Source: a virus (Duplodnaviria; Caudoviricetes). Taken from it: a stretch of DNA of 64,000 nt. Below are positions 6,377 through 51,000 of the stretch, piece after piece. Below the pieces are notes generated by a model, which did not search any database, was not told the DNA's origin, and saw only the letters and a program-made list of their open reading frames with translations. Both the position numbers and the translations under genes were made by a program. Numbering within the stretch: the first letter of the stretch is position 1; each line of letters starts with the position of its first letter. The DNA is taken from positions 136,159 through 200,158 of the IMG/VR virus record IMGVR_UViG_3300042888_002988, one strand, 5' to 3'.

Positions 6377-8124
6377 ACCTGAGCTTCACCCAAGAATACT
6401 ACCCGTCCGTCGAGGAACTCACACCAGAGCAGATCACCGCTGCTCGCGAGCAGATTGTCACCGCCCTGCGGCCGTTCATGCCCGACGTGGACTTGACGCC
6501 CGGAACGCCGACGGGTGACTTCGTGGTCACGCCCATGGCGGTCTACCGCGCCGCAGCTGAGGAAGCCAACAATCGCCTGATGAGCGACCTGGACCTGGCG
6601 AACGTCGCGGACGGTCTGATCTACTCGTGCGAGTTCGTCAAAGCCTACCTCGGCAACTTCGCCGTCTACGATGTCGACAACCTGCGCGCCAGCGGGTTGG
6701 TGCGGTTGACTTTCACCAGTCCCCTCGCGAGGGATATCGCCCGCACCATTCGGTTCCAGTTCAACACCGAGGACGACTGGACGCTGATGGTGGCTGATCC
6801 GAATACCACAGTCATCAAGATCCTGCAGGCCGGCAGCGCCCATAACGGCCAGCCGGACACCTACGTCCTCGCGCAGACCACAGCGAACACATGGGCCGTT
6901 GACGTGCCGGTGGAGGGAGTGCTGAGCGCGCCGATCGAGGCAGGCACCGCCGGTGCCGCCACCGAAATTGCCACGGATCTCGTCGGGATCGCCGCAGCGA
7001 TCAAGTTCATGTCCGGCGTGCCGTCCGCGTCGCTCCCCGATCTGGCCAGGATGGCTCGCAAGATTGCATTCTCAATCACGGCCGGCTCGCGCGCCTCCAC
7101 GAAAGCACTGGTGTATCGCAACTGGCCCGAGTCCAACATGGTGTCGCCGGTCGTTCCAGGCGACGACGAGATGCAGCGAATGGCCGCGCTGTCGCCACTG
7201 GGACTGCAGTCGCCGGCCGTGGATCTCTACTTCCGCTCGGCGCGCGACATGCAGCGTGTCACCCAGAACATCCGACTGGATTATGTGAACGCTGCCGGTG
7301 CGCCGGCCGCCAAGGTTTTCCGCGGCGTGCTGCCTCTCCTGCACCGGCCCTCGCGCATCCTGGGCATCGAGTGGTCCGGAACCTCAACTGAGTCCAAGGT
7401 GATCAACTACCGGGTGTTCAGCAAATCCGAGCGCGCCGACCTTTTCGGAAGTTCGCACTGCGGCACCCGGTTCGAGTCACTGTATGCGCAACTGGTGCCG
7501 GTCCTTGACGGCTCCTCCACCCCGCTCATCCCGTTGAGTCAGGATGTCAACGGGCAATACGCCATCTTCACGATCACCTACGACTGCGACCCGCTGCTGG
7601 AGACGGTATCGTCGCTCCTTGAGTCGCCGGAGTATCGACCTGCGGGCGTGGATGTGCTGGTGAAATCGGGCCCGTTGGTTCTGTTCGAGGACCTGGCCAT
7701 TACCTACGTCAAGAAACAGGGCGTGAAGACCACGCTCAACACCGCGCGTGAACGCATCGTCGAGTATCTGCGCACAGCTGGACACCCGGACGACTTCCGG
7801 GTGACGGAGCTTTACGACATCGTCCGCAACGCCGGAGCCGACAAGGTGCTGCAGCTGACTGCCTCCGGTCAGATCCTGGTATCGGCCGCGAACAAGCTGT
7901 TCCGTGCCGCGGTCACGTCACCGCTGGCGACCGCGAATTGGGACACCCCGTCGGACTGGTTGCAGGTCATCCCATTCGTCGCCGTTGAAGAAGTTGCCGC
8001 TCCGGCGATCATCATCAACGGTCCCATGTCTCCCGGCGGCCCGACGGATATCTGGGCGGCCACCAATCGCACGGTGCGCTATGCGACAGACCCCTCAAGC
8101 GTGAGATTCATTGAAACCTCCTGA
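6373..8124 (+). CDS. Baseplate wedge protein, J/gp6-like
   Basis: N-terminal PDVDLTPGTPTGDFVVTP pattern, size and position after the gp25-like gene. Confidence 0.65.
   Translation: MNLSFTQEYYPSVEELTPEQITAAREQIVTALRPFMPDVDLTPGTPTGDFVVTPMAVYRAAAEEANNRLMSDLDLANVADGLIYSCEFVKAYLGNFAVYDVDNLRASGLVRLTFTSPLARDIARTIRFQFNTEDDWTLMVADPNTTVIKILQAGSAHNGQPDTYVLAQTTANTWAVDVPVEGVLSAPIEAGTAGAATEIATDLVGIAAAIKFMSGVPSASLPDLARMARKIAFSITAGSRASTKALVYRNWPESNMVSPVVPGDDEMQRMAALSPLGLQSPAVDLYFRSARDMQRVTQNIRLDYVNAAGAPAAKVFRGVLPLLHRPSRILGIEWSGTSTESKVINYRVFSKSERADLFGSSHCGTRFESLYAQLVPVLDGSSTPLIPLSQDVNGQYAIFTITYDCDPLLETVSSLLESPEYRPAGVDVLVKSGPLVLFEDLAITYVKKQGVKTTLNTARERIVEYLRTAGHPDDFRVTELYDIVRNAGADKVLQLTASGQILVSAANKLFRAAVTSPLATANWDTPSDWLQVIPFVAVEEVAAPAIIINGPMSPGGPTDIWAATNRTVRYATDPSSVRFIETS
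6581..6661 (+). repeat. Copy 1 of an 81-nt dispersed repeat (copy 2 at 49048-49128)
   Basis: 71 of 81 positions identical by hand alignment, in the same reading frame. Confidence 0.95.
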
Positions 8125-9653
8125 TGAAAGCAGACTACGAACTTCGGCACAAGCTATACGGGCAGCAGGGATCCCTGTGGGAACGCCAAGTGGACGACGT
8201 GACTCGCGGTCGCATCCGCGCGATCGTGTCCGAGGCTGGCCACGCCTCCACGCTGGCGACACTTGATCGAGTGGCGGCCGGCGCTGTGAACGAGGGCCAG
8301 GTGCTCGTGGAGGATACCTTTTTCCGCTTCGTGGACGGCGACTTCGCAGTGGTCGGAAGACGCCAGCGTGATTACAACCACCGCAGTGTGGTGCTGTCCG
8401 ACGGCTCGCGTGTATACGTGGGCTACCGAGCGGGCGCCGGCAGCTACAGCGCTGATCCGATCCCCACAATACTGGCGAACGTATCCGATGCTTTCCTGAG
8501 TTACATCGACGGCACTCGTATGGGCATCAACGGCGACGCGACGCGGGACTGGTATCTCGTGCCGACGCCGTCGACGCTGCGACCCATCGTCATCCAAGGA
8601 AAGAACTTCGGTGAGTATCTCATCCAGGGCGTGGACTTCTTGGCGTTTGACGGCTACATCGCGCTCACCGACTCGCCGACCGAAGTGCTCCCGCTGGGGC
8701 TGGTGAAGGTGAACTCGGCCTACCGCAAGGTTTCGTCGCCCAACAACTTCGTGCTCTCCGCGCCGGCCCAGCGCACAGGCCACAAGTGGATGGCCGAGTA
8801 TGCCTACAAGACGCAATCGGTGGAAGCCTGCCGGCGCGCGGCAGCCGAGTATGCCGGCCTCTACGTTTTCGACGAAGCCGACGTGGCGCTGAGTGTCTAT
8901 GACATGGGCGGCGTCGCGAGAACCTACAACATGGCCGTGGCCGGAGTGCTGGAGATCACCTACCCCCACACACCGCTGACGCTGCGACAGACGGTGGAAG
9001 CTGGCTTCGTGCTGTGTCGCCGTTTCGATCTGGTGTCAGCGCGACACCTAGCCGAAGACAACGCCCTGAGAAATGCAGCCAGCGGATGGGATTACCCTTT
9101 CGCGCTGGACGGTGTCCTGCCTGTCAACGGTCTCACTTGGGACGGCGGCACGGTCACCATCGAAGCCGGCGCCACAGATCCCGGCACCGGTAAAGTGCAT
9201 GCCCGCATGATGTTTGAAGGCGAGCAGGAAACGCTCGAGGCACTATGGCGACTGACCGCCGCGCAGGAACTCGCCACAGGTGAGTTCCTGGTGGACACGC
9301 CGCTGCTCAGCGGTGGATTTCCGGGTGTGGTGGACGGGTGGGATTTGTTCCAAACCTTCTACGGCTCGCAGCTGCTGCTGGCGCTCGCCTCAAGTCACGA
9401 TCCAACGATCAACAGCCGGCTGTGGCGTTTCCTGTCCGAGCATCACCCGAAGTCATGCAACCTGCTGCTCAGTATAGATCTCGCGGCGGAGACTGTCCCC
9501 GTCACCGGCGGCAGCGGCGAGCCGCTGGTGGACGAGGTGGGAGAGTATGTCGCCGCGCCGCTGATTGAACCGTGCGAGGAGTTCCTGCTGGCCGTCCTCG
9601 GTAACCCGCTGTATGTCGTCGGCAATCCGCTGACCTACACGCTATGCTCCTAA
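8124..9653 (+). CDS. Putative baseplate/tail structural protein
   Basis: Long ORF coupled (TGATG) to the baseplate gene; no catalytic motif recognised. Confidence 0.5.
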   Translation: MKADYELRHKLYGQQGSLWERQVDDVTRGRIRAIVSEAGHASTLATLDRVAAGAVNEGQVLVEDTFFRFVDGDFAVVGRRQRDYNHRSVVLSDGSRVYVGYRAGAGSYSADPIPTILANVSDAFLSYIDGTRMGINGDATRDWYLVPTPSTLRPIVIQGKNFGEYLIQGVDFLAFDGYIALTDSPTEVLPLGLVKVNSAYRKVSSPNNFVLSAPAQRTGHKWMAEYAYKTQSVEACRRAAAEYAGLYVFDEADVALSVYDMGGVARTYNMAVAGVLEITYPHTPLTLRQTVEAGFVLCRRFDLVSARHLAEDNALRNAASGWDYPFALDGVLPVNGLTWDGGTVTIEAGATDPGTGKVHARMMFEGEQETLEALWRLTAAQELATGEFLVDTPLLSGGFPGVVDGWDLFQTFYGSQLLLALASSHDPTINSRLWRFLSEHHPKSCNLLLSIDLAAETVPVTGGSGEPLVDEVGEYVAAPLIEPCEEFLLAVLGNPLYVVGNPLTYTLCS

Positions 9654-9675
9654 CAACCCAAATACCCTCGAGCAC

Positions 9676-10269
9676 ATGTTCAAACTGATCAGAGACCAGA
9701 CATCCATCGGCGATGTGCTGAGCAACCGCGGACTGTGGCCGGTGAGCTACTCTGCCTACTACACGGAGAACAATCAACCGGCCGCCATCTTCGTGATGCA
9801 TTCATCACCGAGCCCGGATGTATTTGCTGACAGCTTTTCTTGCGTGGTCAGCGCCATCCAAATGACGGACTTGCCGGCGACGGCTCCGGAATTAGGGAGT
9901 CCGTTCTACAGGGTGTCTAGTTTCACCAAGCTTTTCCAGGACGCCGTTTCCGCCGTCGCTTTCGATGAGAAGATCAAGGCCCTCACGCAGGACCTGGTAA
10001 ATAATCTATACGCCGCGGGACAGCTGAGCGAAGTGCAGAACACCGTATTCGAGCCTCTGGGCGGTGGTGGCACCGACGTCCCAGCCCCCAGCAGCGGATC
10101 TGACCCAGGCAGCGTCGGCAGCGAATCTGACTCTGGCAGCGGATCTGACCCAGGCAGCGTCGGCAGCGAATCTGACTCTGGCAGTGGCTCCGACCCAGGC
10201 AGCGTCGGCAGCGAATCTGACTCTGGCAGTGGCTCCGACTCAGGCAGCTTCGGCAGCACGTCAGGCTGA
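9676..10269 (+). CDS. Putative virion protein with Gly/Ser/Asp repeat tail; paralog of 10317-10709
   Basis: Shared MFxLIRD, PAAIFVM and DVFADS with the next gene. Confidence 0.6.
   Translation: MFKLIRDQTSIGDVLSNRGLWPVSYSAYYTENNQPAAIFVMHSSPSPDVFADSFSCVVSAIQMTDLPATAPELGSPFYRVSSFTKLFQDAVSAVAFDEKIKALTQDLVNNLYAAGQLSEVQNTVFEPLGGGGTDVPAPSSGSDPGSVGSESDSGSGSDPGSVGSESDSGSGSDPGSVGSESDSGSGSDSGSFGSTSG
10096..10257 (+). repeat. 45-bp tandem repeat, about 3.6 copies (GSDPGSVGSESDSGS)
   Basis: Units start at 10096, 10141, 10186 and 10231. Confidence 0.95.
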
Positions 10270-10316
10270 CAGTCGCGCGTCTTGTATTTTCGATCCAACT
10301 CAAGTATCCTACCGCA

Positions 10317-10709
10317 ATGTTCCGGCTGATCAGAGATGAAACGACACCCACAGTAATGGTTGGCAGCCGCCATCAATGGGCCGTGCGCTTCACCGCGAGC
10401 CGCACCTTGAATTCTGCGCCCGCCGCGATCTTCGTCATGCGGAAAGCGCTGGCAACCGACGTGTTTGCTGACAGCCTCATCAGCGTCGCGAACGCGCTGC
10501 AGATGAGCGCACTGCCGATAGCTCCGCCAGATGTAGACGATCAGGTTTACCGGGCGAGCACCGTGACGCACCTCTGCCGCAGCGAAAAAGCCGCGGAAGA
10601 GTTCGTCAGCAAGATGGAGTTCGCCGTGCAGTATCTAGTCGAGGATCTCCACGCCGCCGACGGACTCAGCCAGCCGGAGGAAACACTAATCACGCCCGAC
10701 AATGACTGA
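10317..10709 (+). CDS. Putative virion protein, paralog of 9676-10269
   Basis: Alignable to the upstream gene over about 120 aa. Confidence 0.6.
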   Translation: MFRLIRDETTPTVMVGSRHQWAVRFTASRTLNSAPAAIFVMRKALATDVFADSLISVANALQMSALPIAPPDVDDQVYRASTVTHLCRSEKAAEEFVSKMEFAVQYLVEDLHAADGLSQPEETLITPDND

Positions 10710-11229
10710 TTTCGCCATACCCTACCTGATGGAGATCGAGCCGCGGCGTGTTGACGGCATGCTGGTGCCTCCCATGCGTCAGGACTTCAACCTGCCTGGG
10801 ATCATGGTGCTGCAACCGCTGCCGCCGGAATACGATACGGTGACCATGGAGCGCGCGCCTTACCTGACCATTCTTGACCTGTGGGCTCGGCAGGGCGACA
10901 CCTTCCTGTCCCGGGACATTGCTCGTTTCCTGCAGCCGAACGGCACGCCGGTGGCTGTGCAGTCGGCCCGCATGCAGATACGCCTCGCTGGCGGTGCGGC
11001 CCTCTACGAGTGGACCACCGAGGGCGTCAGTCCGAATATGCTCATCGGAGAGTCGGACAACCTTCTCACGCTGCTGCAGGTTGCGCCGGAAGTCACGGAC
11101 CTGTGGGTGGCCGGACAGCATCGCTACGATCTCGAAGTGACGTTCGTGGGCGGGCAAGTATTGACTCCTGTGGGCGGTGCTTTTACTGTAGCCGAGGACG
11201 TTACCAACGATGATCCACCGACCCCATGA
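10702..11229 (+). CDS. Tail-fibre/upper-baseplate (BppU-like) protein
   Basis: Motifs ARQGDTF and RYDLEVTF...GAFTVAEDVT; precedes the collagen-like fibre gene. Confidence 0.5.
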   Translation: MTDFAIPYLMEIEPRRVDGMLVPPMRQDFNLPGIMVLQPLPPEYDTVTMERAPYLTILDLWARQGDTFLSRDIARFLQPNGTPVAVQSARMQIRLAGGAALYEWTTEGVSPNMLIGESDNLLTLLQVAPEVTDLWVAGQHRYDLEVTFVGGQVLTPVGGAFTVAEDVTNDDPPTP

Positions 11230-12068
11230 GCGACCCTATCGAAGTCATTGTTCAGGTTCCACCGACAGGCCCTCCCAGCCCGCCGTTGCGGATCGGCATT
11301 GGCCCGCCCGGACCTCAAGGGATCCAGGGTGTCAAAGGGGACAAAGGTGATACCGGTGACACGGGGTCACAGGGAGCCACCGGACTTCAAGGGATCCAGG
11401 GTGTCAAAGGGGACAAAGGTGATACCGGTGCGCAAGGAGCCACCGGCCAGCAGGGTATACAGGGGGAACAAGGGCCAGCGCCTTGGACTTTTGTCGGAGC
11501 TTACGACAATGGGGCTGACTATGGCTTTAATGCGGCGGTAACTTATCAAGGCGGTTTCTACTACAGAACAGGTAACCCAAACAATCCGGGATACCCGCCG
11601 ACGCCTGGAGCAATCAATGCATCGTGGACGCCTGTTGCCGACAGGGGCGAGCAAGGTGCCACTGGTGATGTAGGTCCGCAGGGAGTCAAAGGCGACACTG
11701 GCGACATCGGTCCGCAAGGCGCCACTGGCCCGCAGGGTTCCCAAGGTGACCAGGGTGTCCAAGGAGAGCAAGGTGTCCAAGGAGAACAAGGTATCCAAGG
11801 CGACCAAGGCGGTCAGGGTATCCAAGGTGACCAGGGTGCCCAAGGAGAGCAAGGTGTCCAAGGAGAACAAGGTATCCAAGGCGACCAAGGCGGTCAGGGT
11901 ATCCAAGGTGACCAGGGCGTGGCTGGGCCAAACGAATTGACACAGTATACTTCGAGCGACGGCACTGCTACCTTGCAAATAGATACGCTGGATGCTAATC
12001 AAATGACAATAGGCGGACGAGCCGTATCTACCAAGAATTTTACCATCGCAATGGCTATCGCATTATGA
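11226..12068 (+). CDS. Collagen-like (Gly-X-Y) tail fibre protein
   Basis: Two long GXY runs. DNA-level duplications of 72 bp (11310/11382) and 81 bp (11741/11822/11903). Confidence 0.85.
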   Translation: MSDPIEVIVQVPPTGPPSPPLRIGIGPPGPQGIQGVKGDKGDTGDTGSQGATGLQGIQGVKGDKGDTGAQGATGQQGIQGEQGPAPWTFVGAYDNGADYGFNAAVTYQGGFYYRTGNPNNPGYPPTPGAINASWTPVADRGEQGATGDVGPQGVKGDTGDIGPQGATGPQGSQGDQGVQGEQGVQGEQGIQGDQGGQGIQGDQGAQGEQGVQGEQGIQGDQGGQGIQGDQGVAGPNELTQYTSSDGTATLQIDTLDANQMTIGGRAVSTKNFTIAMAIAL

Positions 12069-12649
12069 AAACACTTTGCCAGACCTATAGTCTGAGCGGA
12101 TCAGAGCTAACGCTAAGCGTGACTTTTCCGCTCAATCAAGAATCGATCTTGCTGATCACTGATGTCGATAATAACGACATTCTCTACAATTTTGCAGATC
12201 CAACACGCGGCGGCGTTTTGGTAGGCAACCTCATGATCTTGAATTACGTCGGATTGGCAACCGGCACTACACGTTTGCAGATTTACTTGGACGACGGAAA
12301 TGCACCAGCTTCCGAAGCTGGACTTCAGTCGATCACGAATCTGTCGACCGACACAAACGCATTACTCAATTCGCTTTCTGAAGCACTTAACGTACTCCAG
12401 AGGATCGCCAAAAACTTAGAGTCTCTGCAAGTCGTCGATGCCAACCAACGCCAGCGGGTGACAGTCGATTCCATCGCCGGCAGCTTGACGCTAGGAACCG
12501 TCACGACAGTAAGCACAGTCACCGCAGTCTCCGGAGTCGGGAGCGTGACGTCATTGAACCAGCTAGGCGGTGTTCCGACCATCTTCCTTCAAACCGACGT
12601 AGCCCGACAAGCCTTTGCCACTGGTATCCGCCGAAATCTAACCTTCTAA
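12065..12649 (+). CDS. Tail-fibre module protein
   Basis: Coupled to the collagen gene; T/V/S-rich C-terminus. Confidence 0.55.
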   Translation: MKTLCQTYSLSGSELTLSVTFPLNQESILLITDVDNNDILYNFADPTRGGVLVGNLMILNYVGLATGTTRLQIYLDDGNAPASEAGLQSITNLSTDTNALLNSLSEALNVLQRIAKNLESLQVVDANQRQRVTVDSIAGSLTLGTVTTVSTVTAVSGVGSVTSLNQLGGVPTIFLQTDVARQAFATGIRRNLTF

Positions 12650-12655
12650 TAGAAC

Positions 12656-15511
12656 ATGTCATACACAAGCAATCTCAAAAAAGTAGTGGATCTTCCGGTC
12701 TGGGAGTGGATGCGCGTCGCTCCTGCCACAACCTCGGCGCTGACCTGCCTCACCGCTGCAAACACCCTCAACAACCGTTATCTGTACTACCTGGCGACCA
12801 ACACACTGTTTCGTTACGACACGCACACAGACTGCTGGCAACAACTCGCAAGCTCGATCAACGTCAACATTACATTGATCGAGGCTGGCTACACGTCGGC
12901 CATGGGTCACCCGGGTCGCGCGATCGCAGGCGGTGCTTCGACGATCACCTTGGCTGGACTTGGTGGTAACGCTCTCGTCGGTCAAAAAATTCGCATTACC
13001 GGCGGGACGGGCGCGGGACAAGAGCGGACTATCACAGCTGTCAGCGCGCCGACCATCCACGATCGCGGTATCGTCGTTGGTTCGTCGACATCCAGCATCA
13101 TCGATTCCTCATCAGGTATCCTCACCAAGACCTGGCGTCCTAACAAGTGGCGTGATTATCAAGTGCGCGTGTTCTTCGGTACGTTTTCCGGGTTGGTGCG
13201 TCCCATCCTACAAAACTCAGGAACGACCCTATTCTTCTCTGACGCCGGCACGAATGTCATCAACGTGTGGAACGCGCCGACCGCATCAGGCACAGTCCCA
13301 GTGAACTCATTTTACCAGATCGAGTCCCACGTCGCAACGGTCGATTCGCCGTGGGACGTGCAACCTGACAGCACGTCTACGTTCATGATCATGTCTGGCG
13401 GGCTGTGGTCGATATCAAGCAATGCCGGCGGATTCTGCATCCATTACTACGACGTGCTCGGTGATTACTGGTATCAGAAATCAAACGTCACTGGCCATCT
13501 GGGAGCCATCGGAACGGCGATTGCGTTCGAGCGTTTTACTGAATCTGGAGGGGCAATTCTGACCGGCCTATCTGCCACTTCAGCTGCCGCAAGAACTCTA
13601 ACCAATTCGTTAGCGAATATGGGGGTCAACCGTTACGCGAACATGGAGATCCGCATCACCAGCGGCATCGCAAAAGGACAGATCAAAACCATTCTGGCCA
13701 ACTCACCCACCACATTCTACTTTGCCAGCCCTTTCAACGTGACACCCAACGCGGACGACACCTACGAGGTGTGGCGTGACTGTGGAAAGCTACTCGTGGC
13801 TGGTATGGCTGGCGCGCCAATTCAAATGTATACTGCCGGCGAGGATCTCTGGGCGTCCGGTCGAATCTTTGATGTAGGTATTAGTCGCCCGGCGACTGTC
13901 ACAGGCGCTGGGTTTGCTCCTATGGGTGTGGTCAGTATCACGAGGACCTCGAATTTGTATGGCGCAACCGCCATCAATCCTATTCCGTCCTCTGGCGGTA
14001 CCGGTTATCAAGTCGGGCAAATGCTCACGCTCGGAACTCCGTCTGGAGGTGTCGGGGCCTCTGCGGTGATCACGGATGTTAGCTCCACCGGAGCGGTCAC
14101 CGGCGTGGCACTCGTCGCGCCTGGCGCTCCTGCCGTCAACGGATACATTACCGGTAATAGATCTACAACGGTGACGCCCGTCGGAGGCACCGGCTGTATC
14201 GTCAACGTCACGGCCGTCGGAGAAATTGCGACAGTGACATTATCATCGAACGCGCCTTTTAAGCTTGGTGATTCTGTTACCATCGCCGGCGCAGTCCAAT
14301 CGGACTATAACGGCTCGAAATCGATCATTGGTATACCGACTGCCACGACTTTCAACTTCTCGCTGGGAGTGGCCGCCCCAGTTACGCCAGCAACTTTCAC
14401 CGCAATACAGTCCACTACGACCGTCGCAGACATTGCCAAGAACTGGATTCCAAACGAGCACGTCGGTAAAATTCTGACACTCACGTCAACTGTCGGTCAA
14501 ACCGTAGCGGCCACGCACCGTGTGATTGCGTCCAACACGTCAAATACGATCACAGTCGTCGGAACCAACTTCACACCAACAGTCGGTGTGTCGCAGTATT
14601 TGATTCAGGACATACGTTGCTTCGGTACTGAAATGTCGGTCGGCGCTCGCACCGGCGGCGGACGTTCGGGATTTGCCAGCGGCGGTTCCACCTCCACGCT
14701 TGTCGACGCGTCCAAAAATTGGCCACCAGCTTACTGGATTGGACGCAAGGTCCAAATCGTCGCCGGAACCGGTATAGGTGCTATTCTGACAATCACTGCA
14801 AACTCCGCCACGACGCTGACCTACGCGACGCAGACGTTCACCCCTGACGCAACCACAGTTTACCAAATTCACGACTGCTTCGGAGTGGCGACCGGCGGAT
14901 CAGGCACGACGCTGGTCGACACCACCCAGAACTGGGGCACCAACATCCACGTCGGCAAGCAGGTCAAATACACTATTGCTGCTACCGGTGCGTGGGTATA
15001 CGCTACCGTGACTTCAAACACATCGAACACGCTGACGTTTGCGACCGCAACAGCGCCTGATGCGACATCCGCGTATTCGATCCTAGAGTCTCAACTAATG
15101 GGCGCTGGTATTCACATGGACTGCGTTACCGGGTGCTCCGATCCTAGCATCAACAATCGCTACCTTTACAAGTGGACCGGAGGAGGTTCTGCTCAGCTCA
15201 CGCGCTATGACTTCACGACTGAGCAATTTGAGACATTGGTTTATTTCCCTCAAGGTGAGACGCTAAACGCAGGGTCGATGTTTGCCTACGACGGAGTAGA
15301 TCGTATCTACTTCACCAAGGACATCTCTGGGCGTGTGTTCTACTACGACGTGGTTAAGAACCTCGTCGTGCCGTTCGGAGTCATTCCATACGGCATGGGA
15401 GTTGCCGTCATTGGTAACCGCATGGAAGTCATTGAGTCGCCTGACGGGGTGAGGTTCCTCTACATCATGCGTCACACCGGCGTTGAGATGTGGCGCGCCT
15501 TGATACCGTGA
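12656..15511 (+). CDS. Large tail fibre/receptor-binding protein with repeated beta-rich modules
   Basis: 951 aa, T/G/S-rich, with repeated modules (TLVDxxxNW...GxxVxIxxGTGxG...I..N...TL). Confidence 0.7.
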   Translation: MSYTSNLKKVVDLPVWEWMRVAPATTSALTCLTAANTLNNRYLYYLATNTLFRYDTHTDCWQQLASSINVNITLIEAGYTSAMGHPGRAIAGGASTITLAGLGGNALVGQKIRITGGTGAGQERTITAVSAPTIHDRGIVVGSSTSSIIDSSSGILTKTWRPNKWRDYQVRVFFGTFSGLVRPILQNSGTTLFFSDAGTNVINVWNAPTASGTVPVNSFYQIESHVATVDSPWDVQPDSTSTFMIMSGGLWSISSNAGGFCIHYYDVLGDYWYQKSNVTGHLGAIGTAIAFERFTESGGAILTGLSATSAAARTLTNSLANMGVNRYANMEIRITSGIAKGQIKTILANSPTTFYFASPFNVTPNADDTYEVWRDCGKLLVAGMAGAPIQMYTAGEDLWASGRIFDVGISRPATVTGAGFAPMGVVSITRTSNLYGATAINPIPSSGGTGYQVGQMLTLGTPSGGVGASAVITDVSSTGAVTGVALVAPGAPAVNGYITGNRSTTVTPVGGTGCIVNVTAVGEIATVTLSSNAPFKLGDSVTIAGAVQSDYNGSKSIIGIPTATTFNFSLGVAAPVTPATFTAIQSTTTVADIAKNWIPNEHVGKILTLTSTVGQTVAATHRVIASNTSNTITVVGTNFTPTVGVSQYLIQDIRCFGTEMSVGARTGGGRSGFASGGSTSTLVDASKNWPPAYWIGRKVQIVAGTGIGAILTITANSATTLTYATQTFTPDATTVYQIHDCFGVATGGSGTTLVDTTQNWGTNIHVGKQVKYTIAATGAWVYATVTSNTSNTLTFATATAPDATSAYSILESQLMGAGIHMDCVTGCSDPSINNRYLYKWTGGGSAQLTRYDFTTEQFETLVYFPQGETLNAGSMFAYDGVDRIYFTKDISGRVFYYDVVKNLVVPFGVIPYGMGVAVIGNRMEVIESPDGVRFLYIMRHTGVEMWRALIP

Positions 15512-15550
15512 CAACCCACTCCTACGAACCGCATACGATAGATCAAAATT

Positions 15551-15880
15551 ATGGCTGAAATACTCATCCCAGAAGTAAAGGAAACGCCGCCTTCGGCAGC
15601 GCGCGTGGCTGCCGTAGACCTCCTGAAAGACCGGCGCGAGCTGGCCGTAGCGATTGTCGAAGGGCAGCGACGCCTTTTCGACCGCCTGTGGAAGTCACCG
15701 GATGCCACGCCCGAGGACATCCTCCGTGAGCTTGGCACTGACGCCTCGGCGTTCTTCACAGAGGGAGGACTGCTCGTGGAGTTTCTGATGGCGACAAAGA
15801 CGGTCCGGATGTCTGAGGCCGAATACGCCCCGCCAGTGGCTTACACCGCGCACGACGACGGGACGGTGACGTTGAATTAG
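15551..15880 (+). CDS. Hypothetical protein (tail-fibre associated)
   Basis: Last ORF of the fibre module. Confidence 0.55.
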   Translation: MAEILIPEVKETPPSAARVAAVDLLKDRRELAVAIVEGQRRLFDRLWKSPDATPEDILRELGTDASAFFTEGGLLVEFLMATKTVRMSEAEYAPPVAYTAHDDGTVTLN

Positions 15881-15882
15881 TA

Positions 15883-38962: not shown

Positions 38963-38967
38963 CAGCC

Positions 38968-41782: not shown

Positions 41783-41793
41783 CCAAACAGCAC

Positions 41794-42057
41794 ATGCACA
41801 CTGATAGAAAATTGATTTCCCTGCACGGGGGACACTGGAACGGTATATCCATTGAGGACTCCGGAACCGTAGTCGTGAAGCTCGGAATCGCATCCGCTTA
41901 CGAAGACACACCCAACGGTCGCCGGCCGCTGGTTGGCGCCAGGGTAGGTCATGCGATCTACGAGTTCGCCAGCCGGTATGCCCGGGATGAAGCGTTTTTC
42001 CTAAGCAACCACTGGGAAGGTATTTGTGAGGGCATACAGGAGGTCGGCGATGAGTGA
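41794..42057 (+). CDS. Small hypothetical protein
   Basis: Coupled ORF. Confidence 0.5.
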   Translation: MHTDRKLISLHGGHWNGISIEDSGTVVVKLGIASAYEDTPNGRRPLVGARVGHAIYEFASRYARDEAFFLSNHWEGICEGIQEVGDE

Positions 42058-43522
42058 CGACATCCGCACCAATGACAGCGCCGCCCACGCACCGGATGAA
42101 GTCCGGCGCTGGGCCAAGCGCATCGTGGAAGCGCAGGGATGCCCTGCGATTCTGGCCAAGGAAGTGAGTGGCTACCACCTCTACATCCCGTGTCCGGAGT
42201 GCCTGGTCACCCACGGCCGCCGTGAGCTGGACGATCCCAAGTATGCGATCAACCTGAGCGTGCTGGCCGGGCTCGGCGAGTATCGCGACGAAACCGAAGG
42301 TCAGGCGTGGCGTCCCAACCTGTTCGAGGATCGGGAAGAGATGCGCAAGAAGAAGGAGTTCGGGGCCGGAGTGTGCATGCGCACCAGGTCGTCGAGAAAA
42401 CCGCACCTGGTGCCGATGGCCGATATCATGACCATGGGCACCGTCACGGAGCGTCACCCAGACATCCAGACGCGGGCTGACATGCGCGGCGGCGCTGCCT
42501 CTGATAACGTCGAGGAGATGTGGGAGGAGGATCCCGTGTCCGGCAAGCTGTGCCCGCCTCCTCCTGGAGAGGTGGTACCACTGGGTAGCCTGCCACCGAA
42601 GCACCCGGCCATCCAGTATCTGGTGAACCGCGGCTACGACATCGCGGCGCTGGAGGACCAGTTCAAGATGGCCTTCTGCGTCAAGGAATACCCCTACGGC
42701 CAGAAGAACATCTTCTACCGCAAGATGCCGGGCGGCTGGAAGGACTCGCCGCAGCATCGGATCGTGTTCTACTCGATGGTGGGCGGGATGCCATTGTCCT
42801 GGCAGGCCCGCGTGATCGAGAAGCTGTCCGAGGACGAGCTCAACAAATACATGCTGCATCCTTACGCCGGCGGGTTCTATCGCGGTAAGGACACCAGCAG
42901 CATCCTGCGCTCGTTCAAGAAGTCGTTCAAGATGGGCAGCGACGGTGACAAGGTCCAGCTGGTGTGGGACGACGGCCGCAGCGGTTACTGGCTACACGTG
43001 TGGAGCCACACCCACACCAGAGCTAACCCCAAGGCCGCGTGGTTGCCGATGGCGCCCTACGATGAGATCGGCGAGACCGGGACATTCAAGTTCCGCCCGT
43101 CGAAATATCGCACGGCGAAGTATTCCCACCGGCAGTTGATGGGCTGGGATGCGGCACAGAAACGAGCCGCCAAGGACGTCGAGGAGCTGCGCTGGTGCGT
43201 GTTGTGCGAGGGCCCGTTGGACGGCGGTCGAATCGGTGCCGGCGGACTCCCGGTGACCGGGTCGTCCATCAGCATGGAGAACGCTGCCAAGGTCGTCAGC
43301 AACTACCACCTGGTCTTCATGGCCTTCGACGATGACGTGGCCGGCCGCGAGGCTACCGCCAAGATCACGTCGATCCTGCGGTCTCCGCACCACAAGTCGT
43401 CGATCATGCTGGATCTCGTGTTCTTGCCGCTGCCGCAGGGCCGGGATCCAGGTGACCTGACGCCATTCGAATACTCCACGATCTTCAACCGAGCTTTGAA
43501 ACGCGCCAAGCGCGACCACTAA
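42050..43522 (+). CDS. dnaG: DnaG-type DNA primase
   Basis: Zn motif CPECLVTH; TOPRIM VLCEGPLD, AFDDDVAG and GRDPGD. Confidence 0.88.
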   Translation: MSDDIRTNDSAAHAPDEVRRWAKRIVEAQGCPAILAKEVSGYHLYIPCPECLVTHGRRELDDPKYAINLSVLAGLGEYRDETEGQAWRPNLFEDREEMRKKKEFGAGVCMRTRSSRKPHLVPMADIMTMGTVTERHPDIQTRADMRGGAASDNVEEMWEEDPVSGKLCPPPPGEVVPLGSLPPKHPAIQYLVNRGYDIAALEDQFKMAFCVKEYPYGQKNIFYRKMPGGWKDSPQHRIVFYSMVGGMPLSWQARVIEKLSEDELNKYMLHPYAGGFYRGKDTSSILRSFKKSFKMGSDGDKVQLVWDDGRSGYWLHVWSHTHTRANPKAAWLPMAPYDEIGETGTFKFRPSKYRTAKYSHRQLMGWDAAQKRAAKDVEELRWCVLCEGPLDGGRIGAGGLPVTGSSISMENAAKVVSNYHLVFMAFDDDVAGREATAKITSILRSPHHKSSIMLDLVFLPLPQGRDPGDLTPFEYSTIFNRALKRAKRDH

Positions 43523-43531
43523 ACTACCCAC

Positions 43532-44302
43532 ATGTACAGCCCATTCAATAAACTGCACCCAGCCCCGCACGAAAACGGGAAACGCTTACACTTCAACGTC
43601 AAGAACGCGAAGCTGATCAAAACCCGCACGGCAGCCTTCTCCCTGCCCGCGGGTTACACTTGCCCCGGAGCGAATGAATGTCTCGCCTGGGCAGACCGAA
43701 ACGAAAACCGTTTAATTGAGGGACCTAACTCTAAGCATCGCTGCTTTGCTGCGTCGCTGGAGATTGCGCGAAAGTCTGTTCGTGTCTCCGTCGATCGTAA
43801 CTTAGCAGCGCTGCAACAAGCGCGGACTGTGGAAAGGATGGCGGACTTGATCGATATGAATCTGCCTGCCGTGTTCTTCCACCACATCCGAATTCACGCT
43901 GACGGTGACTTCTACAACCAGGAGTATTTCCTCGCCTGGCTGGAAGCTGCTCGACGCAACCCCAGGCGGTTGTTCTACGCCTACACCAAGAGCCTGCCGA
44001 TCTGGATCAAGTTCAGGGCGGCACTCCCCGAGAACTTCGTACTCACGGCTTCTTGGGGTGGCAAATGGGACCATCTCATCGAGCCCAACGGACTGCGCAG
44101 CGCACGTGTCGTCTATCACCCGGAGGAGGCTGAGCGCCTCGGACTGGAGATTGACCACGATGACAGTTGTGCTCGATCGAAAGACGGCAAAGACTTCGCC
44201 CTGCTCCTGCACGGCGTACAAGCAAAGGGATCGGAAGCATCGGAAGCTCTCAAGCGGATGAAACGCGAGAAGATCAAATTCTCTTACAGCCAAGAGGCAT
44301 AA
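43532..44302 (+). CDS. Gp88-like protein
   Basis: FSLPAGYTCPGA, CFAA, IRIHADGDFY and FYAYTKSLP. Confidence 0.75.
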   Translation: MYSPFNKLHPAPHENGKRLHFNVKNAKLIKTRTAAFSLPAGYTCPGANECLAWADRNENRLIEGPNSKHRCFAASLEIARKSVRVSVDRNLAALQQARTVERMADLIDMNLPAVFFHHIRIHADGDFYNQEYFLAWLEAARRNPRRLFYAYTKSLPIWIKFRAALPENFVLTASWGGKWDHLIEPNGLRSARVVYHPEEAERLGLEIDHDDSCARSKDGKDFALLLHGVQAKGSEASEALKRMKREKIKFSYSQEA

Positions 44303-44327
44303 CCAAACACACGCAAACCAAACTGAT

Positions 44328-45044
44328 ATGAATACCACCTGCATTCCCACTGACCACAAAGACATGATCAACCGCCTGTTCAAGGGCGGAGACAAGCTGC
44401 TGCCGCAAATCATCGATCACGATGTGACGCTGCTGCACGCTGCCATCGGCATCGCCGGCGAAGCCGCCGAGTTGGAGAAAGCCGTCCTGCCCATGAGGTT
44501 GGATATGGCCTACAAGATGGCGCCGATGAAGCGCATCAACGACGGCGTCAAGCACTCCCAGTGGGATGGTTACGACGGGTTTTCCGGCGTGCCGGTCGAG
44601 AACATCACTGAAGAGCTCGGTGATCATTTGTTCTATGAGGGAGCGCTGCGTATCGCCACCGAGCTGGAGGAACTGCCGGACGAGTTTCGTCAGCCGAAGC
44701 TATGGACAGCCTCCAGCCCGTTATCGCGCGCCAACCAAGGGCAGCCGCGCAAGCTGGTGCTGTGCGAGCTGATCAGTCTGCACTCGGTAATCGCCGGGGA
44801 CATTCTGGACGTCGTCAAGAAGCGTGTCATGTATCGCAAAGAGCTGGACCGTGATAAGCTGACTCACTTGCTGGTGGATGACTGCTGGGTTGTGCAGGGC
44901 ATCGCCGACATCCTCGGCATCAGCGAGAACGACATTCGCACCCACAACTTGAATAAGCTCGAGCGCGGCGCCAACGCCCGCTACAAGGACGGCTACTCGG
45001 ACCAGGCCGCCCAGGATCGCGCTGACAAGAAAGGAGAGGAATGA
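44328..45044 (+). CDS. MazG-like NTP pyrophosphohydrolase with internal duplication
   Basis: GIAGEAAELE and EELGDHLFY; C-terminal NLNKLE..RYKDGYS. Confidence 0.8.
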   Translation: MNTTCIPTDHKDMINRLFKGGDKLLPQIIDHDVTLLHAAIGIAGEAAELEKAVLPMRLDMAYKMAPMKRINDGVKHSQWDGYDGFSGVPVENITEELGDHLFYEGALRIATELEELPDEFRQPKLWTASSPLSRANQGQPRKLVLCELISLHSVIAGDILDVVKKRVMYRKELDRDKLTHLLVDDCWVVQGIADILGISENDIRTHNLNKLERGANARYKDGYSDQAAQDRADKKGEE

Positions 45045-46774
45045 TGGACTTGGAAGCATTCATGCGTGACATGCTGCAGAAGGACATCAGCCACATCGAA
45101 GGCGCGGCGCCGGTCAACCGTCGCAAACGTGCGAGCGTGGAGGAGCTGCAGGCCAGGCTGGCCTACTACCAGAAGAACAACCCCGACTTCGAAGTAACGG
45201 AGGAGCATCTGGAGATTCTGCAGGCCATCTTCAGTGAGCACCGCAACACGCTCATCACGGGCGGCGCTGGCGTCGGTAAGACATCCTTCGTGCGGACAGT
45301 GCTGATCCCGGAGCTGGATCACCGGAACATGCACTGGGCGGTTACAGCCACCACCGGCATCGCCGGCAGCCACCTAGACGGGAAGACGATGCACTCGTTC
45401 TTCGGCATCGGGCTCGGGCCTGACTGGCCGGAGCTCTACCCGCGCAAGATGTCCGAATACCTCGAAGACATCAGCCCCGGCGACCCAGTTCCGCGTCCGC
45501 AGGACATGAGCGTCGAGGAGCGCAACGCTTGGTATCGGATGTTCTACGATGTGTGGCTGAACGGCCCCAAGGTGAAGAAGGGGCAGCGCAGCGGTGTCAT
45601 GGCCCGCCTCCGATCGCACGAGATCGTGCTGATCGATGAGGTGTCCATGATGCACGGCGACGCCATGCTAGGCTATCTGGACTTCATGCTGAAGGAAATC
45701 CGCGGCAGCTCCGCCCCTTTCGGCGGTCTGCAGCTGGTGTTTATCGGCGACTTCGCCCAGCTGCCGCCGGTGGAAGAAGGCGGCGACCCTGACAAGGCCG
45801 ACTGGGCATTCATGTCCAAGGCCTGGGATGAGGGCCGGGTAAAGTGCATTGAGCTGACCAAGGTGTTCCGCCAAGGTGACCAACGGTTCATCCGGTTCCT
45901 CAACAATATCCGCAGCGGGCAGCTGACACCAGACGATCGACAATACGCCGCGACCTTCGTGCGGACGGACCTGACGCTGGAGGAGACCAAGCACTACACC
46001 TTCCTGGTGCCCACCAACGATCAGGCGCGGAGGATCAACCTCGCGTCGCTGGATCAATACGAAGGTCCGAACTTACCGCTGAACGCCGAGTTCTACGTCT
46101 ACCCAGAACTGCAGAGGATGAAGGACTGGGAAGCTAGGGACATTGGTAAGGTCAAGGAAGAATTGACCAAGGCAATGGGGAGGAGGCTGCTCGCTCCGCG
46201 TCACTTCGTGCGGATCGGCTACCCGGTCATGTTCACTGTCAACGACCACTTGGAAGGTCAGTTTGTCAACGGCACCAGGGGGTTTGTGCGTGAGGTCAAT
46301 ATCAACCCTCGGTCGGACGAGGTCGGATGGGATGACACTGACAATATCGTTGTCGGGATCCCAGGCCGCAAAGAGGGAGATCCGGAGCGCCTGGTGACAC
46401 TCACGCGTTGGGCCTATAGCCGGGAGCGGGAGCAGGACTCAAAGGAGCAGGTTGCTGTGGGCACCGAGTGGAATGCCACGCCGGGCAACCCGAAGCTGCC
46501 GGAATACATCAGCATATATCCGACGGTGAAGCAGTTTCCTCTGATCCCGGCCGTGGCCATCACCATCCACAAGTCGCAAGGCATGTCGATGGACAGCGGC
46601 ATTCTGGCACTGGCTCGCACGTTCGCGGCGGGGCATGTGTATGTCGGCTTGTCGAGGTTGCGATCTCCGGAGGGCCTGGTGCTCACGGACCGTGATTTCG
46701 ATGTGCGTGTGGATCCTATCGTTATGGAATTCTACAGCTCAATAAGAGAATCAATATGCCTGACAGTGCCCTGA
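45041..46774 (+). CDS. Pif1/RecD-like SF1B helicase
   Basis: TGGAGVGKT, TATTGIAG, TMHSFFGIG, IDEVSM, PFGGLQLVFIGDFAQLPPV and AITIHKSQG. Confidence 0.93.
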   Translation: MMDLEAFMRDMLQKDISHIEGAAPVNRRKRASVEELQARLAYYQKNNPDFEVTEEHLEILQAIFSEHRNTLITGGAGVGKTSFVRTVLIPELDHRNMHWAVTATTGIAGSHLDGKTMHSFFGIGLGPDWPELYPRKMSEYLEDISPGDPVPRPQDMSVEERNAWYRMFYDVWLNGPKVKKGQRSGVMARLRSHEIVLIDEVSMMHGDAMLGYLDFMLKEIRGSSAPFGGLQLVFIGDFAQLPPVEEGGDPDKADWAFMSKAWDEGRVKCIELTKVFRQGDQRFIRFLNNIRSGQLTPDDRQYAATFVRTDLTLEETKHYTFLVPTNDQARRINLASLDQYEGPNLPLNAEFYVYPELQRMKDWEARDIGKVKEELTKAMGRRLLAPRHFVRIGYPVMFTVNDHLEGQFVNGTRGFVREVNINPRSDEVGWDDTDNIVVGIPGRKEGDPERLVTLTRWAYSREREQDSKEQVAVGTEWNATPGNPKLPEYISIYPTVKQFPLIPAVAITIHKSQGMSMDSGILALARTFAAGHVYVGLSRLRSPEGLVLTDRDFDVRVDPIVMEFYSSIRESICLTVP

Positions 46775-47790
46775 TAGATACGCTGCTGAAACACCGCGAG
46801 GCAATGGACTGTGACTTAGTCACATTGCCTCGCATGGCCTTCTGGAACAACTCGGTCAAAACGGCCGAGCAGAAGGCTCACATCATTGATCGCGCCCAGA
46901 CCCTGCAGGCCGGGATCAACCGGCCCTTCGAGGACAAGCTGCTGCACGCCCGCAAGGTCATAAAGCAGTCCCTGGAGGTGGCCGGTGTCAACTGGGCGGT
47001 CAGCTACTCGGCGGGGCGGGACAGCACTGCGCTGTCCCACCTGATGACGGAGGAGATCGGTATCCGCCACGTTCCGCACATCATGAGCAACACCCGGATG
47101 GAATATCCGGAGACGCTACAGATGTTCAAGGTGTGGAAGCTGTGGCTTGCCGAGCGTGGCGTGGAGTGCCACCAGGTGTTCCCCGAGATGCGCCCCAAGG
47201 AATTGTGGCCGCTGATCGGTGTGCCTCTGTGGAGCAAGCAGATCGCCTACAAGTATCGTAAGTTCGCGGCATCCAAGAGCGACAAAATTCCGGCCCACAC
47301 GCCGGAGGACCTGCACGATCAGTTCCGTCAGGCGAAAGCCGCGGGACTGAAGATCACCGAGAAGTGCTGCGACTACCTCAAGAAGAAGCCCATGAAAAAG
47401 TGGGACAAGGAAAACAACGTCCAGGGTCATTTCACCGGCGTGCGCTGCTCCGAGTCACGCGCACGCCGGCTGGCCTGGATCACGTCGGGGGCGCTATATC
47501 AGGCGGTGCACCACGGCGGCCTGTGGATATCGAATCCGCTGGCGTTCTGGACTGACGCGGACGTGGCACGCTACCTCGACGAGAGGAAGATCCACGTCCT
47601 GCGCCCCGACACGCTGAGCGGCGGATCGGGGTGTGTGACCTGCATGTTCGGCTGCCGTAGCCGGGCGCAGGAAGGGACACCCAACGCCATGCAGGACCTG
47701 AAGACCAGGAACCCGAAGATGTGGCAGACCGCCCTGGATGACTGGGGCTATCGCGAAGTGCTTGATCAATTAGGAATACCATATGAGTGA
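46756..47790 (+). CDS. PAPS-reductase/CysH/DndC-like adenine nucleotide alpha-hydrolase
   Basis: PP-loop VSYSAGRDS, CCDYLKKKP, TGVRCSESRAR and GCVTC. Confidence 0.82.
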   Translation: MPDSALIDTLLKHREAMDCDLVTLPRMAFWNNSVKTAEQKAHIIDRAQTLQAGINRPFEDKLLHARKVIKQSLEVAGVNWAVSYSAGRDSTALSHLMTEEIGIRHVPHIMSNTRMEYPETLQMFKVWKLWLAERGVECHQVFPEMRPKELWPLIGVPLWSKQIAYKYRKFAASKSDKIPAHTPEDLHDQFRQAKAAGLKITEKCCDYLKKKPMKKWDKENNVQGHFTGVRCSESRARRLAWITSGALYQAVHHGGLWISNPLAFWTDADVARYLDERKIHVLRPDTLSGGSGCVTCMFGCRSRAQEGTPNAMQDLKTRNPKMWQTALDDWGYREVLDQLGIPYE

Positions 47791-48052
47791 ATCTGAAAAT
47801 GCAAAGTTAAGGGCAGCCCTCGAGAAGTTCGTGAGCTGCATCAACGTCACCGGCGGAATGCTGAAATACGAGTCAGGGAACATCGCCGGATGCGGCGGAG
47901 ACCCGGAGTGGATCGACTTGTCGGATGCCTACGTGGTGGCTTGCGAGGCGCTGGGTATTGAGCCCAAGACCCAGCTGGTAGCTGACGACGATTACGAAGG
48001 CGGCACCGAGAGCATCTTGGATATAGTTTCGAAGGAGGCATCGGATGAGTGA
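47783..48052 (+). CDS. Small hypothetical protein
   Basis: Coupled ORF. Confidence 0.5.
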   Translation: MSESENAKLRAALEKFVSCINVTGGMLKYESGNIAGCGGDPEWIDLSDAYVVACEALGIEPKTQLVADDDYEGGTESILDIVSKEASDE

Positions 48053-51000
48053 TCGACCACAGTCACGCCGGGGCATGACCCTGGAAGAACGGCAGCCCGA
48101 TTACGAGGACCTGTCGAAGTGCCCCAAGACCCTGACGAAGACACGCCACATCGACGACGTGCTCTACGTCGCCGGCCGAGCCCCGATCGAAGGCCAGGCT
48201 GAATACGGCGTCATGTTCGTGACGTCGTCCGTCGAGGAGGAGGAAGCCACCACCGCTGCCAACTCAGTGTTCGGGATGCGGATCACCCAACCCGCGGAAT
48301 ACCTGAAGGGTGCCACCGGCATCATTAAGGACGTCGCACTGCGGGCTGGCATCGACCTCGACAAGTGCTACTACACCGCGTGCTGCAAATGGCTACTACC
48401 CCGGACGCAGCGGGCCAAGCCGGCGAAGAAGATCATGAAGTGGGGCATGCCGGTGCTGGAAGACGAGATCAAACGGGTGAAGCCGAAGATTATCGTCTGT
48501 CTGGGCAAGCACGTGTTCGACATGGTCAGCCCACAGAAGATCAGCTTCGACGACGCCCACGGCTGCTGGTTCTGGTCGGAGGACTACCAGGCCCACCTCT
48601 ACGTGATGTATGCCCCCTTCACGCTGGTCGGCAAGCCCGAGTTCTACGAGACGTTCCGCGTCGACTTCAAGGAGGTCGCACGGCGGAAGGAGATCCTCGA
48701 CAACGGTGGCTCGATTACCGGCCGACCCTTCCAGCACCAGGTCATCCGCGACATGGACGCTCTGGAGGACTGGCTCGACCACATCGAGACGCTTGTGGAG
48801 GAAGACCGCTGGCCGGGGCATAAGGACGAGAACGGGCACCCGCTGCTGGCGGTGGACTGTGAATGGCACGGTCGAACCCACGTCGACGGCAAGCTGCGCA
48901 CGATCCAGTTCGCCTGGTCGGAGACGGATGCCGTGGTGATCGAGTTCCGGGACGAGAAGACGGAGTGGAGCTTTGAGATGGGTAGCTGCGAGGACCTGCC
49001 GCCGCTCGATCCGGAAAATCCGCTGGCCGTTAAATTGAATGGAATGCTGAGCGACCTGGATTTGGCGAACGTCGCGGATGGCCTGATCGACTCGCGTGAT
49101 TTCGTTGAAGCCTACCTCGGCAACTTCGATCCGGAGCTGGAAACGAAAAGTAGGAGCGATATTGACAACGGCAAATTGAAGCTGGGGAAGGAGTTCACGG
49201 TCCACATGATCACCATGGGAAGCGACACGTGCGCTGTCTGCGGCGAGGAAGAATGCGACCACCTGCGCGTGAATCGCAACGGCGACGCTATCGCCCCGGA
49301 TGCGTTCCGGCAGATGCCACGCGGCCCGTCCGAGTATCAGCCACCACCAGCCGATCGTATCGCCCAGCGCATGGCAGAACTGGAGCTGGAACACCGCGCC
49401 CGCTACAAGGCAATCGGCAAGCGTCTCAACCACACCACGGAGAAGATCAAAGCCCGTTACATCGGTCACCACTACGCGGCTGACGCCCCGTGGATGAGCC
49501 ACACCCTGGGGATGGAGATCTACCAACGCTGCGAGCTGGACACCGAGTTCGCCCAGCAGACCGTGGACGAGTCCAGCGAGCTGGGACTGGAGCGTGGCAT
49601 CGCGATGAAGTACACGAACCTGGGTCGCTACGACTATGACCTGATGATGTGGAAGCGGGAGAACAAGGAACTCTGCAAGGGCGGCTACGGCTTCATCCCG
49701 TCAAAGATCATCCACCCATACGGCGCAGCTGACGTCATCACACCATACCGGGCCTACCCGATGATCAAGCGGCAGCTGGAGGCCCAACGTCTGTGGGCCT
49801 ACTACAGGGACATCTTCAACCCGTTCGTCACGGACGTCTTCACCGAATTCACGATGACCGGGCTACCGATGGACGTGGACACGATGAACGACCTACGGGA
49901 CCTGTTCACGTTCACGAAGGACCGCCTCAACAAGAAGCTGAAGCTCAGGATCGCCAAGGAGGCTACCCAGAAGCTCAAGCGCAAGCTCATGCAGACGTTC
50001 GGCGTGATGGCTGCCAAGGTCTGCTCAGTGACGATCGACGCCCGCAACGCCGAGATGCTCCGCAACACGGTGAAGCAGCTGCTGCTCGATACCGGCAAGC
50101 TGGTGGACGTCCCCAAGTGGAACAAGATCATCGCTCACTGGGAAGAGGCACCAGCGTTCAACATCCGATCCCCTGACCAGATGGCCAGGTGGCTGTTCGA
50201 CTTCGAGGAGCTCATCCCGATCAAGTCCACCAACCAGAAAGCCAAGGGCCTTCCCAGCATGGCGTGGGAGAAGGTGCTGGAGCTTCCAGCCGACCGCCAG
50301 GCGATGTTCAAGCCGGCCGTAGACAAGCAGACGCTCGCGATCCTCTCGGAGCAGCTGCCGGCGATCGACGAGCTTCTGAATTTGAATGCCGTCGGCAACT
50401 TGTCGAAGGCATTCCTCAAGGAGCCGGACGTTTACGTCGACGAGGATACCGGTGAGGAAGTGACCGAGGAACACGGGCTGCATGCATGGCTCGCAAGTGA
50501 TGGTAGGGTGCACGGACAGATGTCGGCCACGGAAACTGGTAGACCTCGCAGTTGGGCCCCGAACACACTCAACTGGCCATCCTATGTCAACAAGAGAGTT
50601 GCTATATCGGTGGCTACTTGCGTGCAGGAAGCATTCGAAGAAGGTGACTTGCCGGAAAATCTACTGAAGTGGGTTGGAGCTACACCAGATGACTTGCCTT
50701 CTATCAGATCATGTGTTAAGGTGCCCGAGGGATGGATAGCCGTCGAATCCGATTATGCAACTGCGGAGATGGTTGCACTTGCTATCATATCAGGTGACAA
50801 AGACTTAATGCGTATCTTGTTCGATCCGGATCCTGAATGGGCCGTGTTAAAGCATAAGAAGCACGGAGCGTCGGTGGTGCGAGTAGCATTCACCGATCCA
50901 AAACTTTCAGGCGTCCCGGAGAGCGCGCGAAGCAACAAGTTCCTGATGCATGTGTGGGCGGCAGGTGAATGCCTTGGACCAGTGGATGATTCTGATCTGC

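Follow-up and report, generated by a model that had tools for sequence, protein, structure and literature searches.

We analysed a 64-kb stretch of DNA, hereafter the window, which forms the last part of a 200,158-bp phage record in IMG/VR (IMGVR_UViG_3300042888_002988), and found that a short piece of the baseplate wedge gene is present a second time, in frame, within the exonuclease domain of the DNA polymerase gene. The polymerase copy is most probably (at a probability of roughly 0.75) a tolerated, one-off patch left by ectopic recombination, specific to one lineage and likely carried as a passenger with no function of its own. The features on which this reading is based are as follows.

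6373..8124, + strand: baseplate wedge gene P0001, 583 aa, of the T4 gp6 / Mu gp47 / XM1 gp16 class; donor (PHROG 6, AlphaFold2 (AF2) model, Foldseek).
6571..6661, + strand: donor tract, residues 67-96, in the N-terminal helical region of P0001 (alignment of 55 homologues, AF2 model).
48045..51803, + strand: UDG-exo-PolA DNA polymerase gene P0002, 1252 aa; recipient (Pfam, PHROG 17, alignments).
48975..49403, + strand: hypervariable linker between the ExoI and ExoII motifs, residues 311-453, 143 aa (alignment, AF2 model).
49038..49128, + strand: baseplate-derived patch, residues 332-361 (three-way comparison with the related contig L013 and the phage's own baseplate gene).

Positions 6581-6661 and 49048-49128 were identical at 71 of 81 nt, and the encoded peptides at 22 of 26 residues; over the extended tract (6571-6661 and 49038-49128), the identity was 85% across 91 nt and 23 of 30 residues (BLASTP E 4e-10). 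The two copies lie on the same strand and keep the reading frames of P0001 (583-aa open reading frame (ORF), 6373-8124) and P0002 (1252-aa ORF, 48045-51803), respectively. In a self-BLAST of the whole 200,158-bp genome, they were paired at 87% identity with E 8e-19, and were the only dispersed repeat with E < 1e-5 besides a 181-nt terminal repeat. The edges of the tract were sharp; homology of the patch flanks to the baseplate gene was rejected, as the similarity there was not significant (E 19-20). The 181-nt direct repeat, 99.4% identical, is located at the two ends of the record (G000:C1:1-181 and 199978-200158; window 63820-64000), and is compatible with a terminal repeat or with a circular or permuted genome assembled once around.

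The same arrangement was recovered from other samples. An identical polymerase protein with an identical patch was assembled in two other Joint Genome Institute (JGI) samples, and the patches of L015 and L016 were identical to that of the window. Contigs of other runs (X3, X4, and X6; lake and freshwater metagenomes) crossed the patch and both polymerase flanks with 0 differences, and the baseplate copy was found with its baseplate flanks on separate contigs of the same three runs; runs X5 and X6 covered the stretch only partly, and gaps in these two are uninformative. An assembly chimera is excluded because independent runs carry each copy in its own context. An earlier note, prepared from the letters of this DNA alone, had reported the 71/81-nt match, the in-frame copies, and the 22/26 peptide identity, had proposed a check for a chimeric assembly, and had interpreted the pair as an intragenomic capture of baseplate sequence by the polymerase; the match was reproduced in every figure, the check revealed no chimera, and the capture is real, as described below.

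The segment was present in all 55 baseplate-wedge homologues retrieved, whereas the patch was found in only one of 50 UDG-exo-PolA homologues, namely that of this phage. L003-L008 and 43 further polymerase homologues lacked the tract, and in records G002-G004 the segment was present in the baseplate gene and absent from the polymerases L004-L006. Because every wedge homologue has the segment and no other polymerase does, these alignments show that the transfer ran from the baseplate gene to the polymerase. The donor was either the wedge gene of this phage itself or its counterpart in a very close relative infecting the same cell, since the lineage-specific residues A76 and D80 are common to the patch and the phage's own baseplate type. 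Wider searches yielded no further carrier: scanning contigs from metagenomes and viruses for patterns of the polymerase sequence beside the patch gave none, residues 305-455 of P0002 compared with 1.8 billion representatives gave a single borderline match, which was to a repeat protein (E 2e-4), and INPHARED, searched with both DNA and protein, contained no close relative, its matches being limited to distant polymerases of Bacillus phages.

The closest polymerase was P0004 on the ENA contig L013 (approximately 91% nucleotide identity). On both sides of the patch its flanks were nearly identical to those of the window (95-97%), and at the position of the patch it has an unrelated sequence of approximately 94 nt. 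Three-way comparison delimited an unambiguous baseplate-type tract at 49055-49122 and two switch zones, 49038-49054 and 49123-49128, so that the tract edges fall in sequence common to the window, L013, and the baseplate gene. At the left junction, 12 of 14 nt matched between the L013-type and baseplate sequences (the imperfect CTG..GAGCGA.CTGGA); at the right junction, the 6 nt ACTTCG were common to both. Reading these as junction microhomologies presupposes that the L013-type sequence is the ancestral state. Since nearly identical L013 flanks enclose an unrelated middle of similar length and the switches seem to fall at microhomologies, the event is best described as a templated replacement of approximately 70-90 nt, not as a simple insertion. 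The findings correspond to what characterizes ectopic short-patch conversion: sharp edges, an ancestral segment in an unchanged donor, and relatives of the recipient that keep the flanks without the tract.

Exactly where the window has the patch, L013 carries a 33-nt tandem duplication (L013:10991-11056; KLMGLRSELDG / KLIGLRSELAP, units 89% identical), a second sign of a spot prone to slippage or recombination. No donor for the L013-type middle was found in this genome, and the rest of the linker had no other recent intragenomic match. Within L013:10001-16367, the polymerase ORF of this relative ends after 863 aa, with similarity to the window stopping at approximately window position 50494, and two genes of 458 and 443 aa that resemble tyrosine recombinases come next; the L013 polymerase gene looks as though it was interrupted by a mobile element or a rearrangement.

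The recipient P0002 contains the Pfam domains UDG (residues 41-195), DNA_pol_A_exo1, and DNA_pol_A, and matched PHROG 17 (E 1e-48); by these matches it is a predicted fusion that joins a family-4 UDG to a 3'-5' exonuclease and a family A polymerase. Translation from an alternative start at 48075 would give 1242 aa. Phage polymerases that combine UDG, exonuclease, and PolA in this way, among them N4-like and SPO1-like ones, are known (PMC10201439). Residues D271, E273, D480, Y559, and D563 of the exonuclease were invariant in the polymerase alignments. Three motifs lie in or around the linker.

48852..48872, + strand: ExoI motif VDCEWHG, residues 270-276 (D and E invariant in 7 and in 50 homologues).
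49230..49262, + strand: C-x2-C-x4-C-x-H motif CAVCGEEECDH, residues 396-406 (alignment).
49458..49496, + strand: ExoII motif YIGHHYAADAPWM, residues 472-484 (D480 invariant).

The large insertion between ExoI and ExoII that the earlier note had described around the polymerase copy is thus present, as a linker of 143 aa with the cysteine-histidine motif at residues 396-406. Across the 50 polymerase homologues, the length of this linker varied from 3 to 172 aa. In the AF2 model of the polymerase, its predicted local distance difference test (pLDDT) values were 32-69, compared with approximately 98 in the exonuclease core; this confidence was too low for any fold assignment, and the linker matched no Pfam, PHROG, or PDB sequence. 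The CAVCGEEECDH motif (pLDDT approximately 60-69) is conserved between this phage, P0004, and the L003/L006 lineage but missing elsewhere in the alignment, and is possibly a zinc knuckle.

An intein or homing-endonuclease insertion was considered for the linker and rejected, as none of these three databases gave a match. LAGLIDADG_2 (PF03161) or DUF4326 (PF14216) was detected in the homologous UDG-PolA proteins P0007, P0013, P0025, P0048, P0050, and P0051 (up to 1540 aa); these domains suggest that homing-endonuclease or intein-type elements also insert into this polymerase family. DNA modification in UDG-PolA phages has been discussed (PMC10201439), and 46756-47790 of the window, together with the region upstream, may have a link to it.

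On the donor side, P0001 matched PHROG 6, "baseplate wedge subunit" (E 3e-6), and its AF2 model (pLDDT 85) gave solved baseplate wedge chains as the top Foldseek matches in PDB (Pa193, XM1 7kh1_A5, phage 7-7-1, Mu, and T4 5iv5_A/B; E down to 1e-10, prob 1.0). With both the family profile and the wedge fold, P0001 is a baseplate wedge protein of the gp6/gp47/gpJ class; PHROG matches of the surrounding genes were uninformative. In the model, the donor segment comprises the end of helix 46-73 and the helices at 75-79 and 86-94, at pLDDT 51-73, below the rest of the protein. The N-terminal helices of XM1 gp16 make the (gp16)2-gp17 core bundle and the trifurcation region (PMC10457771), and by homology the donor segment would be placed at an interface between subunits. 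Two observations were made in the neighborhood of the baseplate genes. The ORF at 4954-5682, just upstream of the baseplate module, resembles an RNA polymerase sigma factor (phrog_351, E 2e-10) and may encode a late-gene sigma factor; downstream of the baseplate genes, virion-region ORFs contain Ser/Gly/Asp-rich and collagen-like G-x-y repeats with 9-nt periodicity (10046-10257 and 11308-11935).

The age of the patch was estimated from the divergence between the copies. The earlier note had counted five synonymous and five non-synonymous differences; the total of 10 was recovered, and the split was not, the Nei-Gojobori count being approximately 6 synonymous and 4 non-synonymous differences, with a dependence on how the TGC-to-CGT codon is counted. 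Synonymous divergence (dS) between patch and donor was 0.44 (6 changes over 18 sites) and non-synonymous divergence (dN) was 0.07; between the window and L013 polymerases, dS was 0.36-0.44 and dN 0.02-0.03. Since the dS of the patch is similar to that of the polymerases, the event may be dated to about the split of the window and L013 lineages. All four amino-acid changes (Y84D, C86R, E87D, and K90E) occurred on the polymerase copy, and the baseplate copy of the window retains the family consensus. In the alignment of 55 wedge homologues, C86 was invariant and Y84 nearly so; in the polymerase copy they are replaced by Arg and Asp, respectively. Five of the 10 nucleotide changes between the copies were C-to-T, and the GC content at third codon positions (GC3) was 0.77 in the patch, 0.78 on average in the polymerase, and 0.92 in the donor.

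On the polymerase branch alone, neutrality was not rejected (P approximately 0.2, with the synonymous changes split evenly between the branches). The intact frame of the patch is no sign of selection, since any frameshift there would also disrupt the essential polymerase domain that follows. A copy of 26 codons is too short for selection on it to be demonstrated by sequence comparison. The suggestion of the earlier note that the copy was kept under selection therefore finds no support in this test, and the patch is absent from the closest relative and 49 other homologues. Nor did anything beyond the origin of the peptide speak for the proposed function as a baseplate mimic, a coupling device, or a decoy: Cys86 and Tyr84 are replaced, and relatives lack the patch. 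The note's fallback, a neutral insertion, fits better, once it is refined from a plain insertion to a templated replacement of approximately 70-90 nt.

Taken together, we propose that a single non-reciprocal ectopic recombination, by gene conversion or template switching, copied a short patch of approximately 70-90 nt from the baseplate wedge gene over a polymerase stretch of similar length. The template would have switched in microhomologies, the left one being CTG..GAGCGA.CTGGA and the right one ACTTCG. The event hit the ExoI-ExoII linker, presumably an outgrowth on the surface of the proofreading domain in which nearly any sequence is tolerated as long as it stays in frame, as its length variation in the family suggests. 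The recombinant probably survived because the reading frame of the essential enzyme was kept and no harm was done, and the copy would since have drifted from the constraints of the baseplate, most likely as a passenger. It is well established that phages become mosaic through recombination between diverged sequences or at very short homologies (PMC2327257), and viruses commonly contain composite genes (PMC4202312).

Several points weigh against this proposal. No other part of the donor is as conserved as the captured piece: wedge residues 70-96 are the family's most conserved stretch, with a mean column conservation of 0.86, compared with approximately 0.6 over the full length of the protein. 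Homology with XM1 gp16 (PMC10457771) would place the piece in the inter-subunit core-bundle/trifurcation region, as expected of a co-opted interaction peptide, and 22 of its 26 residues are retained in the patch. The ratio of dN to dS (omega) was 0.16 over both branches; this joint value is not specific to the patch because the baseplate branch, which is under strong constraint, contributes to it. Placing the synonymous changes wholly on the polymerase branch makes the shortage of non-synonymous changes nominally significant (P 0.013). Finally, the ancestral state rests on parsimony, because there is one close relative only.

The alternative that survives best is an older event, in which the patch was captured before the window/L013 split and later overwritten in the L013 lineage; we consider it possible, at rather long odds. 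The patch-donor dS lies at the top of the window-L013 range, most of the polarizable changes are on the polymerase copy, and at either end of the tract L013 retains a weak similarity. This history, however, requires a second patch event with boundaries matching those of the first, and the L013 middle has no donor in this genome. Moreover, the 33-nt duplication of L013 is old (89% identity between its units), and therefore L013-type sequence has been there for long. Gradual divergence of the middle is ruled out by flanks that are 95-97% identical.

A second alternative is that the polymerase displays the wedge core-bundle peptide as a co-opted interface, binding a baseplate partner (a second wedge subunit or a gp7-like neighbor) or a host factor, and thereby serving as assembly coupling or as a decoy. 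The conservation of the donor segment, its likely position, by fold homology, in the N-terminal helical region that bundles between subunits in solved baseplates (PMC10457771), the 22 retained residues, and the joint omega of 0.16 would all be expected of such an interface. Nevertheless, we regard it as unlikely: the patch is missing from the closest relative and all other homologues, the invariant Cys and the near-invariant Tyr are now charged residues, the copied part amounts to only approximately 30 aa out of a longer helix-turn-helix element, the AF2 prediction of the region is of low confidence, and neutrality on the polymerase branch is not rejected. If the patch did bind baseplate proteins, it would constitute a new kind of link between replication and assembly.

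A broader version of such a link was suggested by another part of the linker.

49143..49304, + strand: older linker core, residues 367-420, including the NRNGD motif at 49272-49286 (hhalign).

This core (TKS..KL.L..F.VH.I.MGS..NRNGD) resembles the N-terminal region of the head maturation protease P0119 (phrog_18299; G000:C1:108255-109697, L019:756-2198). Comparison of 7 linkers with 32 protease N-termini by hhalign gave a probability of 95% and a score of 51.4 (100 column shuffles scored 9.9 ± 1.8, the reversed control 13.2), and the signal persisted without the sequences of this phage. The relationship is old, because the nucleotide identity of linker core and protease is approximately 60%. 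A D-x-C-x2-C...C-x-H-L-R-x-N motif occurs in both, as a weak, pairwise match (E 0.008). Extension of the protease-like module into the L013-type middle was dropped, since the greedy hhalign columns had zero confidence, and the linker of the L003 lineage, searched in the records of four relatives, matched only itself. The linker could accordingly be pictured as an accretion platform that took up virion-morphogenesis peptides more than once, an old protease-like module and the recent baseplate segment, and that links the polymerase to assembling particles, a picture to which we give little credence. If it were true, the link could consist in tethering, packaging into virions, or regulation by the prohead protease.

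It is very improbable that the two genes share a nucleic-acid element, such as an RNA operator, a small-RNA target, or a protein-binding or homing-endonuclease site. The copies do lie on the same strand with 87% identity, but the synonymous divergence of the segment among baseplate orthologues is normal (proportion of synonymous differences 0.5-0.6 vs 0.6 gene-wide), the RNA folding z-scores were -0.05 and -0.63, an Rfam search of the segment gave no match, ten substitutions separate the copies, and the polymerases of relatives lack the segment. An assembly artefact or chance resemblance is hardly credible, for although the genome was assembled from a metagenome, 10 positions distinguish the copies, each of which lies inside its own intact ORF, three assemblies and contigs of further runs reproduce both contexts exactly, and chance would have to produce the self-BLAST E of 8e-19. 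A diversity-generating retroelement was also considered and rejected, the differences being mostly C-to-T and T-to-C with only one of 10 at an A of the donor; no RVT_1 match, indicative of a reverse transcriptase, was found in the genome.

The patch provides an unusually clean and datable case of phage protein mosaicism below the level of the domain, in which the donor, the recipient, the presumed state before the event, as seen in a sister lineage, and the probable junction microhomologies are all visible, and its recipient is an essential replication enzyme. The loop in the proofreading domain of this polymerase family seems to accept arbitrary sequence and could serve as an engineering site. 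The case also cautions against inferring function from short intragenomic protein matches.

Among known systems, diversity-generating retroelements resemble the present pair in that a single phage genome contains two repeats of approximately 90 nt, as in their template and variable repeats (TR/VR), which differ by point substitutions and of which one belongs to a virion gene. Here, however, the substitutions show no restriction to adenine, the genome lacks a reverse transcriptase, and the baseplate copy is the invariant one. The core-bundle wedge proteins T4 gp6, Mu gp47, and XM1 gp16 (PMC10457771) share the fold of the donor, whose N-terminal helical region supplied the copied segment; the polymerase, in contrast, has only approximately 30 residues of it, and these have lost the invariant Cys and the near-invariant Tyr. 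Insertions in family A polymerases, such as the thioredoxin-binding domain of T7 and the thumb insertion of phiKMV, and the UDG-PolA fusions (PMC10201439) are alike in the UDG-exo-PolA architecture and in the extra segment within a conserved domain. Unlike the T7- and phiKMV-type insertions, which are conserved across a subfamily and predicted to be ordered, and of which that of T7 binds a partner, the linker described here varies from 3 to 172 aa, is modeled with low confidence, and bears the patch in one lineage.

The closest likeness is to phage mosaicism at short or diverged homologies (PMC2327257) and to viral composite genes (PMC4202312), in which a bounded foreign patch likewise lies in a collinear gene. 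The present case differs from the mosaicism described (PMC2327257) in that the donor is a gene unrelated to the recipient and comes from the same phage or a very close one, and in that only approximately 70-90 nt were copied inside a domain of the replicative polymerase and not at a gene or module boundary. It agrees with that mosaicism (PMC2327257) in its apparent junctions within very short or imperfect homologies, in the non-reciprocal transfer, and in an outcome filtered by viability.

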